Assembly (NCBI GenBank): GCA_029557905.1
Contig: JAKQHR010000015.1
Location: 1,557 to 65,556 of the forward strand
Source of the DNA: Verrucomicrobiota bacterium
GTDB lineage: Bacteria > Verrucomicrobiota > Kiritimatiellia > JAKQHR01
Reading direction: 5' to 3'
DNA length: 64,000 nt
Shown here: positions 28,490-63,854 of the stretch, in pieces
Position numbering within the stretch: position 1 is the stretch's first letter
Layout of the letters: every line of letters begins with the position of its first letter
Translations under genes and position numbers: made by a program
Notes under the pieces: model-generated
Told to the model about the DNA's origin: nothing
The model's database searches: none
The model's input: the letters and a program-made list of their open reading frames with translations, nothing else

Positions 28490-29060
28490 CTGAAAAACCT
28501 CAAAAAACGGCCCAAAATGGCCAAAAACAGCCAAAAAACGGCCAAAAATGGTCAAAAACGGCCAAAAAACGCCCAAAAACGGCCTGAAAACGGGTTCTTC
28601 TACGATTTTCGTGGGAACATTGGTCGAAATGGAACTGGCTGCGGGGAAGAAATAAAGAACAGGACACAGCCAGATACAGGAGCTGGGAACATAATTTCCC
28701 GGAGAATCGGCGTGATCATGGCGGCGGTGTAGTAGCGCCTCTGTGAGGCGCATTCTGAAACATATGCCGCTCGCAGAGCGGCTACTACACCAGAACCCCT
28801 GCAAATAAAGGCGTTCCCGGCTGTTGTGATCATGGAACGACGAACATGAAAAGCCGTCTGTGAATTCGTGTGAAAGCGGCGTCCAGCCGCCGCACTCCAA
28901 AGCGCCGCGAAGGTGGCGCAACGTTTATCATTTAACGCCAGAAGTTGATTTGGATATCAAAACCTTCCACGATAATTGACGAAGAACCCAAAAATGGCCC
29001 AAAACGGCCTGAAAACGCCCAAAAACGTGAAAAATTCGAATTAGTACTAATTTAGTACTA
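28490..29060. repeat. Phased A-tract array (about 10-11 bp unit, e.g. CCAAAAACGG) ending in TAGTACTAATTTAGTACTA, copy 1, interrupted by a MITE
   Basis: A4-A6 tracts recur at 28493-28590 and 28990-29037; palindrome at 29042-29060. Confidence 0.85.
28593..28988. mobile_element. Non-autonomous ISL3-like MITE, copy 1 (396 bp)
   Basis: Terminal IRs GGTTCTTCTACGATTTTCGTGG / GGTTCTTCGTCAATTATCGTGG (18/22). Reverse-complement homolog of 63318-63721. No transposase ORF. Confidence 0.72.
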
Positions 29061-29099
29061 TATAACCGCCTCCAGTCTCTGCATTTCCTTCAGCCTTCT

Positions 29100-29460
29100 T
29101 TATCATTCTGACTCCTGACTTCTGAATCCTGACTCCTGTCTTTTTTCCCACTTTCTTCTGGCATTCCGCTCCGCCCCTGCGTTATTCTTCGGAACGGCGA
29201 GGGGGTCCAGGAGGACGGACTGAAAGTGAACGACAGACCGGAAACGGCAGGACTCGCGCTGAACACACCCCATACCTGTAACCTTTCTTTTCACCATCAC
29301 GAACCTGAAGATTTCTCGCGCAGGGGCGCAGGGACGCGGAGGGGATGAATAGATATTTCACCGCAAAGAACGCAAGAGAGCGCAGAGAATTAACTGCATA
29401 AAACGCGGAATGGACGAAAGAAGAAGCGGCGCGCGGAAACACAGAAAAGAACGGAACGAA
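29100..29460. repeat. Low-complexity short-period repeats (TCCTGAC/TTCTGAA heptamers, CGCAAAGAACGCAAG-type motifs)
   Basis: attctgactcctgacttctgaatcctgactcctg at about 29106-29139; motifs at 29325-29390 recur at 32490-32632. Confidence 0.6.
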
Positions 29461-29518
29461 TGTTAGATGTTAAGACCCGACCCCATTAACCATTAAGTAA
29501 CGAAGATACAACCCTAAC

Positions 29519-29525
29519 GTTAGGC
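29519..29525 (+). other. Integron core site R' (GTTAGGC) of a degenerate attC or attI preceding cassette 1
   Basis: ccctaacGTTAGGC is the exact complement of the R'' GCCTAAC closing cassette 1. The upstream arm is not clearly recognisable. Confidence 0.7.
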
Positions 29526-29540
29526 ATTAAGGAGACAGCT

Positions 29541-61577: not shown

Positions 61578-61579
61578 TG

Positions 61580-63205
61580 TCAGAACGAAAACGCGGCGTC
61601 ATCAATTGTTACCATAATCCGGTAAAACATCCTTTCGGCCGGCATGTTGGTATCGGTCAGCACGGTCAGACTGCCGTCCGAAGCGACGGTGGTCTGTCCG
61701 GGATGTTCCTGCCATGTGTCTTCAGCGAGATTGGTTTTGTACAGAAGGGTATAGAGCCGGTTGGATGCGCCGTGACAGGTGAGAACGATGGGGTATGCGT
61801 TTGATACGCCTGTAATCTGAAAATAGTCGTTGCTGTTTCCCGGGTCGGTGTCGGCCGTCCATTCCTGCAGATTGCTGAAAAAATCTCCATCTGCATTCTC
61901 TGCGGCATCTGCCGCGCTGGTGGGATTCAGACTATAGGCGATTTCCCAGTAGTCCGGGATGGTGTCCCCGTCGGAATCGGAACGGTGGGGATCATATTCA
62001 TCGGCGCCGACATCCCATGCGGAGCCGACGGGACGGCTCTCGCCGTAGATGTCGTCGGAGAAATCAACGAGGGTTGCGCCCTGATCAATAACAGAGGTCG
62101 CGCCGGGCAGCAGGCGGAGATCGCCGCTGGTCGGGCTGCGGAACCACTGTGCCTGCACTGTTTCAATGTTTCCGGTTTGCGCGGCGGCCGGGGCTCCATC
62201 GCGCGCCGTGATAGGGCCGTCCACCAGATTATTACGGAACACCAGATTGGAACTGCCGGCAAAGCGGTATTCGATCGGGGCCCAGTAGGGGACATAGACT
62301 GTATTGTTGTCCACGCTGACGTTGTTTGCGTATTCCAGCCCGATTCCCACATCGGTATAAGGCCCGTCCCCGTTGTTATAGATAAAATTGTTGCGGATGG
62401 CGCTGGCGCCGCCTTCAAAGCCCCCGCCGTAGCTTGAAAGTCCAAAACCGATCCCGCGGTCACAGTTGATGATGATGTTGCGCTCGACAATGATGTTCTG
62501 CGCGCGGCTGGTGTTGCGGTTCCAGAAGTGGATGGCGTGCTCGGCATAGCTGTCGGGGGCGCGGATATACTCAAACCGATTGTCGCGCACGGTCCAGTTG
62601 ACCGCCTTGTGAGCGTCTATTCCGCCCGTGTAATACTGATAGGCCCACTGGTTGGTGAATTCAAAAAGGCAGTATTCCACAAGGCTGTCCGTCACGCCTT
62701 CGGGATCGCCGTCTGCTGAAGTTCCCTTGATGAACTGCTCGTTGCAGTTGACAATGCGGCAGTTGTGAACCCAAAGGCCGGAAACATTGTGGGGTTCCTG
62801 CCCATGCGCCTGAATGCCGTGATAGCGGCACCAGCCGAATGTAATATCCGCCACCGTGAAATTGCTGGCGGTCACCCAGAAAACATGCTGGAGTGCGGCC
62901 GACTCCCCCTCATCCGGGCCGCGAATGACCACCGCATCGCGGTCGCCGCTCAGGCTGCGGATGATGACGTTGTTGTTCGTGATGGGCAGGGCCCAGTCGG
63001 TCAGGACATAGACCCCGTTGGAAATCAGGATGGTGGCGGGTGCGCTTGCGGCATTCACGGCCGCCACGGCATTCTGAAGCGCGGCCACGGTCCCGACGCG
63101 GTGGATGGTCCCGGTGGTGATGTTGAGCGGAGGCCCGCGGCCCGGCTCGGATGCCGGGGCGGCGCAGGCAAGTCCGAGTATTAAAATGGCTCTCCACAAC
63201 CTCAT
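61580..63205 (-). CDS. Secreted right-handed beta-helix protein with conserved C-terminal module
   Basis: Start reassigned to MRLWRAILILGLAC; parallel beta-helix pattern (NN.F, IGFG, NNT); DIGAYE-like DVGADE; DSDGDT.PD.WE...FYRIMV. Confidence 0.82.
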   Translation of the reverse strand: MRLWRAILILGLACAAPASEPGRGPPLNITTGTIHRVGTVAALQNAVAAVNAASAPATILISNGVYVLTDWALPITNNNVIIRSLSGDRDAVVIRGPDEGESAALQHVFWVTASNFTVADITFGWCRYHGIQAHGQEPHNVSGLWVHNCRIVNCNEQFIKGTSADGDPEGVTDSLVEYCLFEFTNQWAYQYYTGGIDAHKAVNWTVRDNRFEYIRAPDSYAEHAIHFWNRNTSRAQNIIVERNIIINCDRGIGFGLSSYGGGFEGGASAIRNNFIYNNGDGPYTDVGIGLEYANNVSVDNNTVYVPYWAPIEYRFAGSSNLVFRNNLVDGPITARDGAPAAAQTGNIETVQAQWFRSPTSGDLRLLPGATSVIDQGATLVDFSDDIYGESRPVGSAWDVGADEYDPHRSDSDGDTIPDYWEIAYSLNPTSAADAAENADGDFFSNLQEWTADTDPGNSNDYFQITGVSNAYPIVLTCHGASNRLYTLLYKTNLAEDTWQEHPGQTTVASDGSLTVLTDTNMPAERMFYRIMVTIDDAAFSF

Positions 63206-63269
63206 GCATGCAGTATGAGCATAAAACATGCCATTTGGGAATGATACTGCGCAGAAACTGCGACCAGCG

Positions 63270-63824
63270 TGAAAATGCCCCAAAATGCTCAAAAAACGCT
63301 AAAAAAGGCCAAAAATGGGTTCTTCGTCAATTATCGTGGAGGATTTCAGGCTCAAAACCAGCTTCTGATCGTTTCATGAAAAATGCTGCGCCGCCTTCGC
63401 GGCGCTCTGGAGTGCGGCAGCTTGATGCCGCTTTCAGACGAATTCACATACGGCTTCTAATGGCTGGTAAGCATCGGTCCATGATCGATACATGCGCAAA
63501 TGCCTTTATTTGCAGGGTTTCTGATGTAGTAGCTGCTCTGTGAGCGGCACATGTTTTCAGAATGCGTCTCATAGAGACGCTACTACACCGCCGCTGTGAT
63601 CACGCCGATTCCCCCGAAGTTCAGTTTCATGTTCCCAGATCTGACTGAGTCCTGCTTCCCGTTTCCTGTCTGCTGCCGCATCCATTTCGCCCAATGTTTC
63701 CACGAAAATCGTAGTAGAACCCAAAAATGATCAAAAATGCCCCAAAATGGCCAAAAAACGCTAAAAATGGCCCATAATTCGCAAAAAACACCCAAAATAT
63801 CGAAATAGTACTAATTTAGTACTA
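63270..63824. repeat. Phased A-tract array ending in TAGTACTAATTTAGTACTA, copy 3, interrupted by a MITE
   Basis: A-tracts at 63272-63315 and 63723-63797; palindrome at 63806-63824 followed by TATAACCGCTTCCAGTCT (TATAACCGCCTCCAGTCT in copy 1). Confidence 0.85.
63318..63721. mobile_element. Non-autonomous ISL3-like MITE, copy 2 (404 bp), opposite orientation
   Basis: Ends GGTTCT...AGAACC flanked by an exact 8-bp direct repeat CAAAAATG (63310-63317 and 63722-63729). Confidence 0.8.
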
Positions 63825-63854
63825 TATAACCGCTTCCAGTCTAAAAAGCCGCAT

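Follow-up and report, generated by a model that had tools for sequence, protein, structure and literature searches.

Curved A-tract arrays closed by an exact 19-bp palindromic cap form a dispersed intergenic element in an uncultured Kiritimatiellia lineage

The DNA analysed here, hereafter the window, is a 64-kb stretch from an uncultured Kiritimatiellia of wastewater, known from sludge and digesters. At three intergenic loci of the window an array of A-tracts runs into the same 19-bp palindrome, which we call the cap. At locus 1, a left array (28493..28592, + strand; 10 tracts at 28493-28590, period about 10, consensus AAAAACGGCC) starts 60 bp past the stop codon of an AhpC/TSA-type thioredoxin-like gene and is followed by a 396-bp insert (28593..28988, + strand), a right array of 5 tracts in register with the cap (28990..29041, + strand; tracts at 28990-29034), cap A (29042..29060, no strand assigned; TAGTACTAATTTAGTACTA) and a subfamily-specific continuation (29061..29078, + strand; TATAACCGCCTCCAGTCT), which is also found after cap C and after a further cap, N. 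As originally predicted, this continuation has the form TATAACCGC(C/T)TCCAGTCT downstream of copies 1 and 3. Next comes a low-GC island (29079..32146, + strand; GC of 29061-32146 0.45-0.52 against about 0.60), in which a leader with CTGACTC heptamers precedes three ORFs of 229 aa (weak TIR-like match), 195 aa and 312 aa, the last being trypsin-like and matching the PADLOC candidate defence family PDC-S45 (E=1.3e-32). Locus 2 (array 32147..32230, + strand, 6-7 tracts at 32147/32169-32223; cap B 32231..32249, no strand assigned, TAGTACTAAATTAGTACTA) closes the island, and copies 1 and 2 are indeed direct repeats (76% over 92 nt) bracketing a foreign low-GC segment. A fourth array (32653..32760, no strand assigned; tracts over 32653-32758) consists of 6 A-tracts abutting 5 T-tracts, with a dyad at about 32712, and lacks the 19-mer; arrays thus exist without a cap. 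Directly downstream of it come a TTGCAT..TATGAA promoter-like sequence and the M54-serS-tilS-ftsH genes. The array keeps its position in relatives with 89% and 70% identity in the M54 protein; capless arrays were also noticed in the latter relative. In the strain of run X3 a MITE is inserted at this array. Locus 3 comprises a left array adjoining the start of a divergent beta-helix protein gene (63272..63317, + strand; 5 tracts at 63272-63315), a 404-bp insert (63318..63721, - strand), a right array (63722..63805, + strand; 7 tracts at 63723-63797, with one gap) and cap C (63806..63824, no strand assigned; TAGTACTAATTTAGTACTA), followed by TATAACCGCTTCCAGTCT at 63825-63842 and heptamer arrays at 63853-63983. 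L129 continues past the window end with an HNH gene and a type I R-M system, and a fourth module, that of cap N, follows 8.5 kb downstream. The original prediction had three loci with about 10 or more A4-6 tracts each at a 10-11 bp period; the period stands, locus 2 has only 6-7 tracts, and the arrays supposed to be continuous over 28490-29078 and 63270-63842 are each split by a MITE of about 400 bp, in opposite orientations.

The same 19-bp double palindrome was predicted to end all three loci, and this proved exact. Three exact matches to TAGTACTAAWTTAGTACTA occur in the window against 0 expected, each closing the 3' end of an A-tract array, and a search for TAGTACTANNNTAGTACTA returned 29042-29060, 32231-32249 and 63806-63824 only, all on the + strand, even with 2 mismatches allowed; shuffled window sequence (n=100) gave 0 matches to the 19-mer. 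The cap holds two 8-bp palindromes whose starts lie 11 bp apart, and the full 19-mer is a perfect palindrome too, with T, A and T as the centre base at copies 1, 2 and 3, respectively. Alignment of the module loci showed that the dyad is commonly longer than the 19-mer, reading AAA-19mer-TWT, and a hairpin of 8-11 bp is possible (-6.9 to -12.5 kcal/mol, z about -3 to -7). The last two array "units" at one end are replaced by two helically phased TAGTACTA copies.

The arrays consist of A4-7 tracts in a unit AAAAAYGSCC (TRF: period 10, consensus AAAAACGGCC), with 5-14 units of about 10 bp per module, and the tract spacing over 109 units from 15 loci is 8-12 bp (mean 10.08, sd 1.05). A wedge model predicts strong curvature for the arrays, which rank top among the 120-bp windows of the 64 kb and have an end-to-end to contour ratio of 0.28-0.6 against 0.95 for shuffles, in line with the curved-DNA platform originally proposed. 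Array lengths differ among strains, and in the left array of locus 1 strains differ by an indel of one 10-bp (one-turn) unit, by which the phase is preserved. In a cap-anchored alignment the A-tract columns stay in line out to -42, which means that the phase of the array relative to the cap is kept.

The inserts which split loci 1 and 3 are ISL3-derived MITEs. The one at locus 1 has imperfect 25-bp terminal inverted repeats (GGTTCTTCTACGATTTTCGTGG / CCACGATAATTGACGAAGAACC) and an internal compound hairpin at 28729-28791, and in some strains carries an IS110-family insertion at 28782/3. The second copy, at locus 3, is inverted with respect to it and is flanked by a perfect 8-bp duplication, CAAAAATG, at 63310-63317 and 63722-63729. 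The ISL3 family makes a target duplication of 8 bp; the two flanks matched at 8/8 positions at window locus 3, 7/8 in L117 and 5/8 at window locus 1. The 25-bp repeats of the MITE begin GGTTCTTC, and the ends of a full ISL3 element in L118, whose transposase matches Pfam DDE_Tnp_ISL3 at 1e-70, begin GGTTCATCCG. Terminal repeats that match an autonomous IS, together with the 8-bp duplication, identify the insert as an ISL3-derived MITE, and its depth is about 8-10x that of the genome. A reading of the insert as an inverton, or invertible promoter segment, was rejected, since its orientation at locus 1 is the same in all contigs and runs and is opposite only at other loci. Every ISL3 or MITE end seen meets an array at ...AAAAAYG|GGTTC, which together with the IS110 polymorphism inside locus 1 upholds the prediction that these loci attract insertions, and the AT-rich bent CAAAAAYG units are the preferred target of the ISL3-family transposase and its MITE.

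The array-plus-cap module is widespread in the lineage. A metagenome scan, which took loci with the exact 19-mer only, placed it at at least 14 distinct loci, all of them intergenic. The 19-mer is not often met without A-tracts, as 14 of the 15 cap loci of the lineage carry arrays and cap-only matches outside the lineage occur at about chance frequency. Nor are the loci an assembly artefact: region 27600-33600 has single-copy depth in 4 independent metagenomes, and the loci are reproduced identically on >10 contigs from different samples, which confirmed them as genuine. Modules stand in tandem, divergent and convergent contexts, two loci being divergent with no incoming gene; their right edge, the cap, is sharp and their left edges differ at every locus. 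The idea that they form the end of an unrecognised mobile element found no support, there being no defined left end, terminal inverted repeat or target duplication, and the module was likewise rejected as a MITE or IS in its own right, having only its right end defined, no second inverted repeat and no repeated flank at 14 loci. The element is a lineage-specific dispersed intergenic cis-element, a slippage-prone curved minisatellite. MITEs, heptamer arrays, 31-bp repeats and REP-like hairpins were noticed as its neighbours in intergenic DNA. As was suspected at the outset, a search of Rfam, plasmids, phages and the literature returned no named element that matches the module, and we found no earlier description of it; Rfam itself gave only two tRNAs in the window at gathering score, and a chance-level miRNA match alone in 28400-29560.

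We tentatively favour, with less than even confidence, the reading that the module is a pre-bent docking site for a DNA-binding protein. The cap would be bound with high affinity by a sequence-specific protein, either a dimer of dimers or a single dimer occupying the 19-25-bp dyad, with the two sub-sites presumably on one helix face, and the pre-bent array in fixed register with the cap would wrap or loop back on the bound protein to give a compact nucleoprotein complex. The cap is identical at 14/14 module loci at which the arrays are 65-85% alike and the downstream DNA is unrelated, as anticipated for tracts that drift while cap and period are kept, although the metagenome search demanded the exact 19-mer and this conservation across loci is therefore partly one of ascertainment. 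Caps with 1-2 mismatches are absent from 523 kb of lineage DNA, and the palindrome TAGTACTA, expected 1.9 times outside caps, is absent there, a single 8-mer never being seen; these observations support the view that the cap behaves as a specific site under selection. The docking reading is also favoured by the regular tract spacing, the phase kept between array and cap, the one-turn indel, the top-ranking predicted curvature, the uniform junction of ISL3 and MITE ends with the arrays and the intergenic position of all modules, at least one gene leaving the module in 12 of 13 readable contexts. Capless arrays, moreover, lie immediately upstream of the promoter-like hexamers of M54-serS and, in L110, on the trpF side. 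In Acidiferrobacterales contigs L011/L086, of an unrelated proteobacterial lineage, an Rrf2-family regulator gene and sufB have the identical 19-mer 25-43 bp ahead of them, which makes the palindrome plausible as a winged-helix operator. The Rrf2/IscR type-1 operator core is ACT-RWWWY-AGT, and the cap resembles such operators in its dyad symmetry and AT-rich centre as well as in this position before Rrf2-sufB, which we take as a lead only; it differs from them in that no Rrf2 or Fe-S genes adjoin the Kiritimatiellia modules. Several observations sit uneasily with docking. Regulon operators are usually conserved less tightly than these 19-25 bp, which show no variation, the L076 module sits between convergent genes, three modules lie about 10-57 bp past a stop codon, the distance from cap to start codon is long and variable (100-585 bp), and among the flanking ORFs no gene co-occurs consistently with the module.

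It is unlikely that the module is instead a site-specific recombination junction, with the cap as crossover core (9-bp inverted arms around a 7-bp TAAWTTA), the curved array as accessory or arm DNA, and accessory-gene cassettes captured or excised between direct-repeat modules by a recombinase whose gene lies elsewhere. Loci are homologous up to a sharp break 2-6 bp past the cap, where unrelated DNA begins; L064 and L085/L019 share a block of -6..+143 only, with the cap at its edge; L122 and L129 are alike from module N onwards and differ upstream; locus D is a mosaic of A-like and B-like pieces; and three related genomes differ upstream of M54. Two direct-repeat pairs surround foreign islands, namely the 3.1-kb PDC-S45 island of the window and the 8.5-kb type I R-M island (HNH plus hsdM/S/R) between L129 3488 and 12033, and other caps adjoin cas9, MT-A70, an EcoRI-type methylase and ORF6N. 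The 9+7+9 geometry (AAATAGTAC-TAAWTTA-GTACTATTT) with a one-sided array of 100-125 bp fits a core site, but fits two 8-bp operators equally. Known recombination sites that join accessory sequence to a core include cer/psi with XerCD, resolvase res, the lambda attP arms and the Acinetobacter pdif modules. Like these, the module places a one-sided bending region of ~100-180 bp beside a 25-30-bp core with inverted arms, and brackets accessory-gene modules without an adjacent recombinase gene. Unlike them, it has a nearly symmetric core spacer and arrays that are simple repeats, not protein-specific accessory sites, and no recombinase, recombination product or empty site was seen: the window and the surroundings of every module lack a recombinase gene, and 4 metagenomes and >10 contigs held no empty-site or circle-junction joint, the apparent joints being other repeat copies such as locus D. 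The A/B island is at single-copy depth in the 4 metagenomes and fixed in >10 assemblies, the central base is not the same in caps A and B, by which excision by a tyrosine recombinase would be blocked, and the same bracketing would arise if operons followed one another with a module at the head of each.

Also unlikely is a selfish or neutral repeat devoid of host function, that is, a slippage-expanded minisatellite spread by recombination or by a transposition route that might, for example, depend on single-strand hairpins in a REP/PATE-like way, whose cap is uniform through recent spread or gene conversion. The modules do lie in intergenic junkyards among other repeats, in tandem, divergent and convergent contexts alike, with strain-variable array lengths and a cap able to form a hairpin. 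Like REP/BIME, ERIC, Correia/NEMIS, BOX and the BrickBuilt elements of P. gingivalis, which are MITEs containing a minisatellite (PMC4596501), they are multi-copy, intergenic, mosaic and lineage-specific and break short-read assemblies. Unlike these families, they have no terminal inverted repeats, target duplication or GC-rich stem-loop, and combine one sharp and one fuzzy end with an exact AT-rich palindrome. A dedicated transposase, of Y1/HUH or any other type, was not seen, the cap is exact even in subfamilies with unrelated flanks, with no decayed copies, and the arrays stay in register with it.

A mobile promoter cassette appears improbable. Here the cap region would supply a -10 (TACTAT or TAAWTT) together with an operator, with the array as a UP-like curved activator; transcription would begin at the cap and pass through a long heptamer-repeat leader before reaching the downstream genes. 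A co-oriented gene follows at 100-585 bp at 9-10 loci, TAnnnT hexamers occur inside the cap and on its edge, heptamer-repeat leaders follow caps A, C and N, and phased A-tracts upstream of a -35 are established promoter activators. Putative mobile promoters and promoter reuse have been described in prokaryotes (PMC3575422), and the modules resemble these as near-identical non-coding segments before unrelated genes in one genome. They differ in lacking consensus hexamers, since no sigma-70 -35/-10 pair was found at the caps, including the three of the window, and in that some copies adjoin gene 3' ends or lie where two genes converge: in E, F and L085 the cap faces an incoming gene at its 3' end, and L076 is the convergent case. 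At the promoter-like sites of M54 and trpF it is T-tracts that adjoin the -35, not a cap. A sigma-54 architecture, in which the palindrome would be a UAS about 100-200 bp from a -24/-12 element (GG-N10-GC), was rejected: the search gave one 10/12 match, upstream of the locus 3 beta-helix gene, and none at the other loci. At the caps, the promoter module among the original suggestions found no support. Curved DNA with phased A-tracts is known from the upstream regions of bacterial promoters, as UP-like or static-bend activators, and genome-wide A-tract clusters of ~100 bp have been proposed to serve nucleoid packaging (PMC4761138, PMC3940949, PMC3431218). The arrays share with such DNA the A4-6 runs at helical period over ~100 bp, the intergenic position, the predicted bend and, for some members of the family, a place directly upstream of promoter-like hexamers. 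They are set apart as true tandem repeats with a conserved spacer YGSCC, homologous between loci and joined to an invariant 19-mer, and by a period of 10.1 bp where roughly 11 bp is typical of bacterial genomes.

Distinctly improbable, in our judgement, is an integron-like but unrelated cassette system of Kiritimatiellia, in which defence cassettes would be captured and excised between direct-repeat modules by a recombinase acting in trans on a 25-bp dyad core, with the curved array as a protein-free arm in place of accessory bending proteins. An integron cassette array proper, which would have an IntI integrase with attI beside it, was rejected, as a scan of flanking ORFs (window and related loci) turned up no integrase. 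So was the cap as an attC site: these are imperfect R''-L''/L'-R' palindromes with a GTTRRRY core, one at the 3' end of each cassette, and the cap is a perfect AT-rich palindrome without GTTRRRY beside arrays that are direct repeats. We consider very improbable a bidirectional intrinsic terminator or attenuator, in which the cap hairpin and flanking U-rich tracts (the reverse-strand T-array) would stop transcripts. The hairpin energies, the position of the cap past a stop codon and before U-tracts in L081 (10 bp), L119 (57 bp) and L085, and GGCC-U5-GGCC mini-hairpins that score terminator-like in the arrays speak for it; yet the stem is all A/U but for two G-C pairs, an incoming transcript at most loci reaches the A-tracts first and finds only UUU past the hairpin, the two divergent loci have no incoming gene, and the exact conservation of 19 bases and the 100-bp phased array are left unexplained. 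R1 parC consists of ten 11-bp repeats bound by ParR, and pBtoxis tubC is an iteron centromere. Hardly credible is a centromere-like or iteron site of this parC/sopC/tubC type, or the replication origin of an integrated element. The tandem 10-11-bp units at helical period do recall the 10-12-bp repeats on which known centromeres build a wrapped nucleoprotein filament, and identical palindromes cluster (4 in about 73 kb) with bent DNA, but each unit is largely A-tract and its spacer weakly conserved, the modules occupy many unrelated chromosomal contexts, none of them has a par, rep or dnaA-type gene beside it (nor ParM/ParR, ParA/ParB or TubZ/TubR among the flanking ORFs), and cumulative GC skew runs monotonically through the window.

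For the lineage, the preference of ISL3 elements and their MITE for the array units makes the modules hot spots of insertion and rearrangement, at which accessory (defence) genes pile up. If the docking reading is right, the nucleoprotein complex on cap and array may serve as a local architectural or regulatory element which sets or insulates the transcription of the flanking genes, and the module itself would be no promoter.

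We detected the 19-mer TAGTACTANNNTAGTACTA (hereafter the cap) at the three loci of the original prediction and nowhere else in the window at up to two mismatches (29042, 32231 and 63806, all on the plus strand), and no match was obtained in 100 shuffles. Upstream of each cap stand A4-6 tracts at intervals of 8-12 bp, and array and cap together are called a module (locus 1, module A, 28493-29060; locus 2, B, 32147-32249; locus 3, C, 63272-63824). The double palindrome reported for the cap is real, as two copies of the 8-bp palindrome TAGTACTA lie 11 bp apart, and the whole 19-mer, which is usually extended to AAA...TWT, is also a perfect palindrome; the continuation TATAACCGC(C/T)TCCAGTCT is likewise present after caps A and C. 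TRF gave a period of 10 for the arrays, with the consensus AAAAACGGCC, and in 109 units from 15 loci the period was 10.08 +/- 1.05 bp, the unit being A4-7 followed by YGSCC. When 16 loci were anchored on the cap, the A columns were aligned out to -42. The cap can be read as AAATAGTACTA plus AWTTAGTACTA, that is, as two further array units with the spacer TAGTACT, and therefore its palindromes share one face of the helix and keep the phase of the A-tracts. The curvature prediction, performed with a wedge model (Bolshoy-Trifonov parameters), put the arrays at the top of all 120-bp windows in the 64 kb for curvature, with end-to-end/contour ratios of 0.28-0.6 vs 0.95 for shuffles. In 523 kb of high-GC contigs the cap occurred 64 times in exact form (redundancy included) and never with one or two mismatches, and TAGTACTA was never found singly, with no such copy in 248 kb. 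As a separate observation, GTAC occurs about 3.5-fold less often in 248 kb of Kiritimatiellia contigs than base composition predicts (260 vs 922), and AGTACT, outside caps, about 2.7-fold less often; by this measure, caps are built from an otherwise avoided word.

The possibility that these loci are assembly artefacts, raised together with the original prediction, was not borne out. The stretch 27600-33600 has single-copy depth in four independent runs from sludge, digester and landfill (about 11x, 8x, 16x and 6x), and more than 10 contigs from different samples, including two NCBI MAGs, have identical sequence. Short-read contigs usually break off at arrays, caps and MITEs, which accounts for the points at which MAGs of this lineage are fragmented. 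The organism was found in activated sludge, digesters, wastewater and landfill, and the nearest named relative of its M54-like protein (70% identity) comes from a 'Kiritimatiellia bacterium' MAG, which places the window in an uncultured member of this PVC class. A search for the organism in metatranscriptomes gave none that contains it. Searching the 19-mer against GTDB species representatives returned 22 matches in unrelated taxa, none with arrays; this is close to chance expectation, so the GTDB scan added no copies. Viral contigs gave 10 matches, none of them related. The metagenome scan yielded 97 loci, with 24 high-GC contigs in which the 19-mer lies beside an A-tract array, and these contigs together with the window collapse to 14 distinct loci: A, B and C, N (8.5 kb past the window end, on contig L129) and ten further loci, D to M. 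One further locus, represented by L085 and the GTDB contig L019, carries the cap but no array; cas9 starts 200 bp downstream. In contig L068 the 19-mer is followed, after about 170 bp, by an ORF with a C-terminus that, judged by eye, resembles a tyrosine-recombinase catalytic domain. All-against-all BLAST showed that homology between loci begins at about -105/-125, counted from the cap, and breaks off at +19/+25; hence the unit is a variable array plus cap that ends sharply on the right and lacks a defined left edge. Arrays vary by whole units between strains, for example by a 10-bp deletion at 28509. In agreement with the earlier remark that no named element of this kind is known, no match was found in Rfam, plasmid or phage collections, and a literature search for TAGTACTA gave nothing relevant. 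The element is real, non-chance and lineage-specific, and we found no description of it.

Arrays also occur without a cap. A fourth array (32653-32760), in which six A-tracts abut five T-tracts around a dyad, lies directly upstream of the TTGCAT...TATGAA promoter-like sequence of the M54-serS-tilS-ftsH genes, headed by the gene for the M54-like protein. In L132, from a relative with a 70% identical M54, two arrays are present at the orthologous M54 upstream region, one of them followed by an ISL3-type end, with no cap within 20 kb; the arrays are older and wider in spread than the cap. Further capless arrays were noticed in L101 and L085.

Flanking genes were assessed by Pfam and codon-position GC. 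About 9-10 loci lie between tandem genes, two between divergent genes (C and L101) and one between convergent genes (L076, a membrane protein on the plus and an RluA-like protein on the minus strand); since all three contexts occur, the module is not confined to promoter regions. The idea that modules avoid convergent spacers was discarded because of L076, with its downstream RluA-like gene on the minus strand. The cap follows the stop codon of the incoming gene in L081 (by 10 bp), L119 (by 57 bp) and L085. At about half of the loci the neighbours are foreign or defence genes. Modules A and B do form a bracket, as originally described: they flank a 3.1-kb low-GC island whose three genes (29541-31980) encode a 229-aa protein with a weak TIR-like match, a 195-aa protein that is hydrophobic near its N-terminus and a trypsin-like protein of 312 aa with a match to the PADLOC candidate family PDC-S45 (1.3e-32), and which is a likely anti-phage system. 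Caps C and N bracket a YajD-like HNH endonuclease gene and, after it, a complete type I restriction-modification system (hsdM, hsdS, a Schlafen/AlbA_2-HATPase_c_4 protein and hsdR; together L129 3757-11749), with an ORF6N-domain gene downstream of N. Module D lies upstream of a very low-GC ORF and an MT-A70 methylase, in L101 the neighbour is an EcoRI-type methylase, M adjoins the ISL3 element described below, and L085 (110-6540) carries a type II cas9 of 1032 aa (RuvC_III, HNH_4 and Cas9_a domains) with hsdM nearby; the 'Pseudomonadota' label of the near-identical L019 is probably a binning error. The other loci neighbour housekeeping genes (trpF, comM-like, endonuclease III-like, SBF transporter, TonB receptor, RibD_C). 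L122 and L129 are 98% identical in module N and all downstream DNA and differ upstream of the array, and three related genomes have different neighbourhoods upstream of M54; in the relative with 70% M54 identity the arrays are present with other neighbours, and one with 89% M54 identity is known from short contigs. Modules therefore mark variable spots with defence genes (PDC-S45 candidate, type I restriction-modification, cas9, methylases), whatever their function.

Loci 1 and 3 had been described as single spans, and while the arrays are there, they are not continuous: each is split by an insert of about 400 bp (28593-28988 and 63318-63721) whose ends are imperfect terminal inverted repeats of 25 bp. 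The inserts lie in opposite orientation at the two loci, and the flanking arrays and cap keep their orientation at both. We rejected an inverton, as the orientation at locus 1 is the same across all contigs and runs. Fixed orientation per locus, the terminal inverted repeats, a duplication of 8 bp and the existence of an ISL3 element that matches it together identify the insert as a MITE of an ISL3-family insertion sequence. Contig L118 encodes a full ISL3 transposase (Pfam 1e-70), and the ends of its element, GGTTCATCCG..., resemble the MITE ends, GGTTCTTC...; an 8-bp duplication is an ISL3 hallmark, and it is perfect around the locus 3 MITE (CAAAAATG) and matches at 7/8 positions around the copy in L117. 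All visible IS/MITE ends (four in the window, two each in L117 and L118, one each in L132, L101 and L141) abut an A- or T-tract array at ...AAAAAYG/GGTTC (slash, junction), and a strain variant in the metagenome run X3, with a MITE inside the fourth array, is counted among them. MITE depth was about 8-10x that of the single-copy stretch in four metagenome runs. Furthermore, some strains (L141, L153) have an IS110-family element (DEDD transposase) at 28782/28783, in the 3' arm of the MITE compound hairpin GTGTAGTAGC...GCTACTACAC. The ISL3/MITE ends at arrays and the IS110 insertion inside the locus 1 MITE substantiate the proposal that these places attract insertions. A defined curved repeat unit is thus the target of an ISL3 transposase and its MITE, and this holds whatever the module does.

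The intergenic DNA is a mosaic of short tandem repeats with periods of 7, 9-10, 10-11 and 31. Tandem heptamer arrays (CTGACTC/CTGAATC/CCTGAAC; CCTTCAA) occupy leaders between cap and start codon, always on the strand of the downstream gene (window 29108-29138, 63853-63983 and 32545-32574; L129 3540-3670 and 4170-4270), and are reminiscent of the TAACTGA heptamer repeats between genes of Beggiatoaceae (PMC4679880). Other recurrent leader modules consist of TTTTGTGCC 9-mers then TTTTCGTGGC, and of ACCATGAAGA-type repeats (window 32353-32374 and 32455-32485; L129 12120-12240; L085 11700-11745; L122 2285-2315). Tandem repeats of 31 bp, each with the palindrome AAGTTCCAAT-N-ATTGGAACTT, occur in the window at 10806-10898, a copy also predicted to be curved, and beside caps in L064, L085 and L076; in L064/L085/L019 three of them immediately follow the cap. 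Between two island ORFs, at 30925-31020, lies a hairpin element (GGAGTCTGCCGGTGC...GCACCGGAGACTC) whose depth in four metagenomes is about 50x that of the genome; it is a highly abundant repeat of REP-like type. The start codons at 29541 and 31042 are each preceded, at about 20 nt, by a 12-bp palindrome, CCTAACGTTAGG. Within coding DNA, the ORF at 54244-56505 (minus strand, 753 aa, repetitive, no confident Pfam match) contains tandem repeats of 75 bp (seven, 55268-55921) and 63 bp (three, 56049-56237).

The module thus joins a curved, slippage-prone array to an invariant double palindrome in register; it is intergenic, targeted by IS/MITE elements and located in variable regions. We tentatively favour, at somewhat less than even confidence, a specific protein-docking platform with a protein binding to the cap, because only selection on all positions of two in-phase palindromes, with no single or decayed copies, explains the conservation. 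Fixed register with a pre-bent arm is also the arrangement that wrapped nucleoprotein complexes employ. Such a complex may regulate, insulate or organise DNA. Acidiferrobacterales-type contigs of an unrelated proteobacterial lineage carry the identical 19-mer in front of an Rrf2-family regulator gene, at a distance of 25-43 bp, with sufB as the next gene (L011 2719, L086 3002); there it is a probable autoregulatory operator. The 19-mer is therefore a plausible winged-helix operator, which we take as a lead only. Were the cap a recombination junction, its sharp edge, the bracketing and the mosaics would be accounted for, but we consider this unlikely, as no recombinase, product or empty site was found in the flanking genes, contigs and metagenomes examined, and the centre base is not the same in caps A and B. 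Apparent empty-site or excision joints turned out to be other repeat copies (locus D; the MITE/array-4 junction) and not island deletions. A selfish repeat, which fits the junkyard setting, seems just as improbable, for transposition hallmarks are absent and exact caps in subfamilies with unrelated flanks are left unexplained. That the module is a promoter cassette is quite doubtful, since no sigma-70 consensus hexamers were found at the three window caps and the copies at 3' ends and between convergent genes contradict it. A sigma-54 model of UAS, bend and promoter was set aside as not general, the one -24/-12-like site near any module being TGGCATGTTTTATGCT (63240-63225, minus strand, 10/12 match to the consensus), just upstream of the beta-helix gene diverging from locus 3. 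To a cassette system with a recombinase in trans and a protein-free curved arm we give slightly less credit than to the promoter cassette. A terminator is very improbable given the weak, A/U-rich cap stem, and a centromere or origin is hardly credible, with no cognate genes among the flanking genes. An integron was rejected, as no cognate genes were found beside modules.

Concepts nearest to the module include cer/res/att sites with one-sided accessory DNA, pdif modules and parC iterons. Phased A-tract curved DNA and genomic A-tract clusters (PMC4761138, PMC3940949, PMC3431218), dispersed intergenic repeats, among them a MITE that contains a minisatellite (PMC4596501), and reused or mobile promoters (PMC3575422) also stand close to it. 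The module lacks what defines MITEs, integrons, par centromeres or sigma-54 architecture, and shares only curvature with UP-type elements. To our knowledge, Kiritimatiellota have barely been studied, and nothing is known of their promoters, nucleoid proteins or mobile-element biology. The 25-mer AAATAGTACTAAWTTAGTACTATTT is a ready bait for identifying the putative binding protein. Should the cap prove to be a site on pre-bent DNA where a specific protein docks, the module would be a clean natural example of sequence-encoded curvature, coupled to a protein site in fixed helical register.
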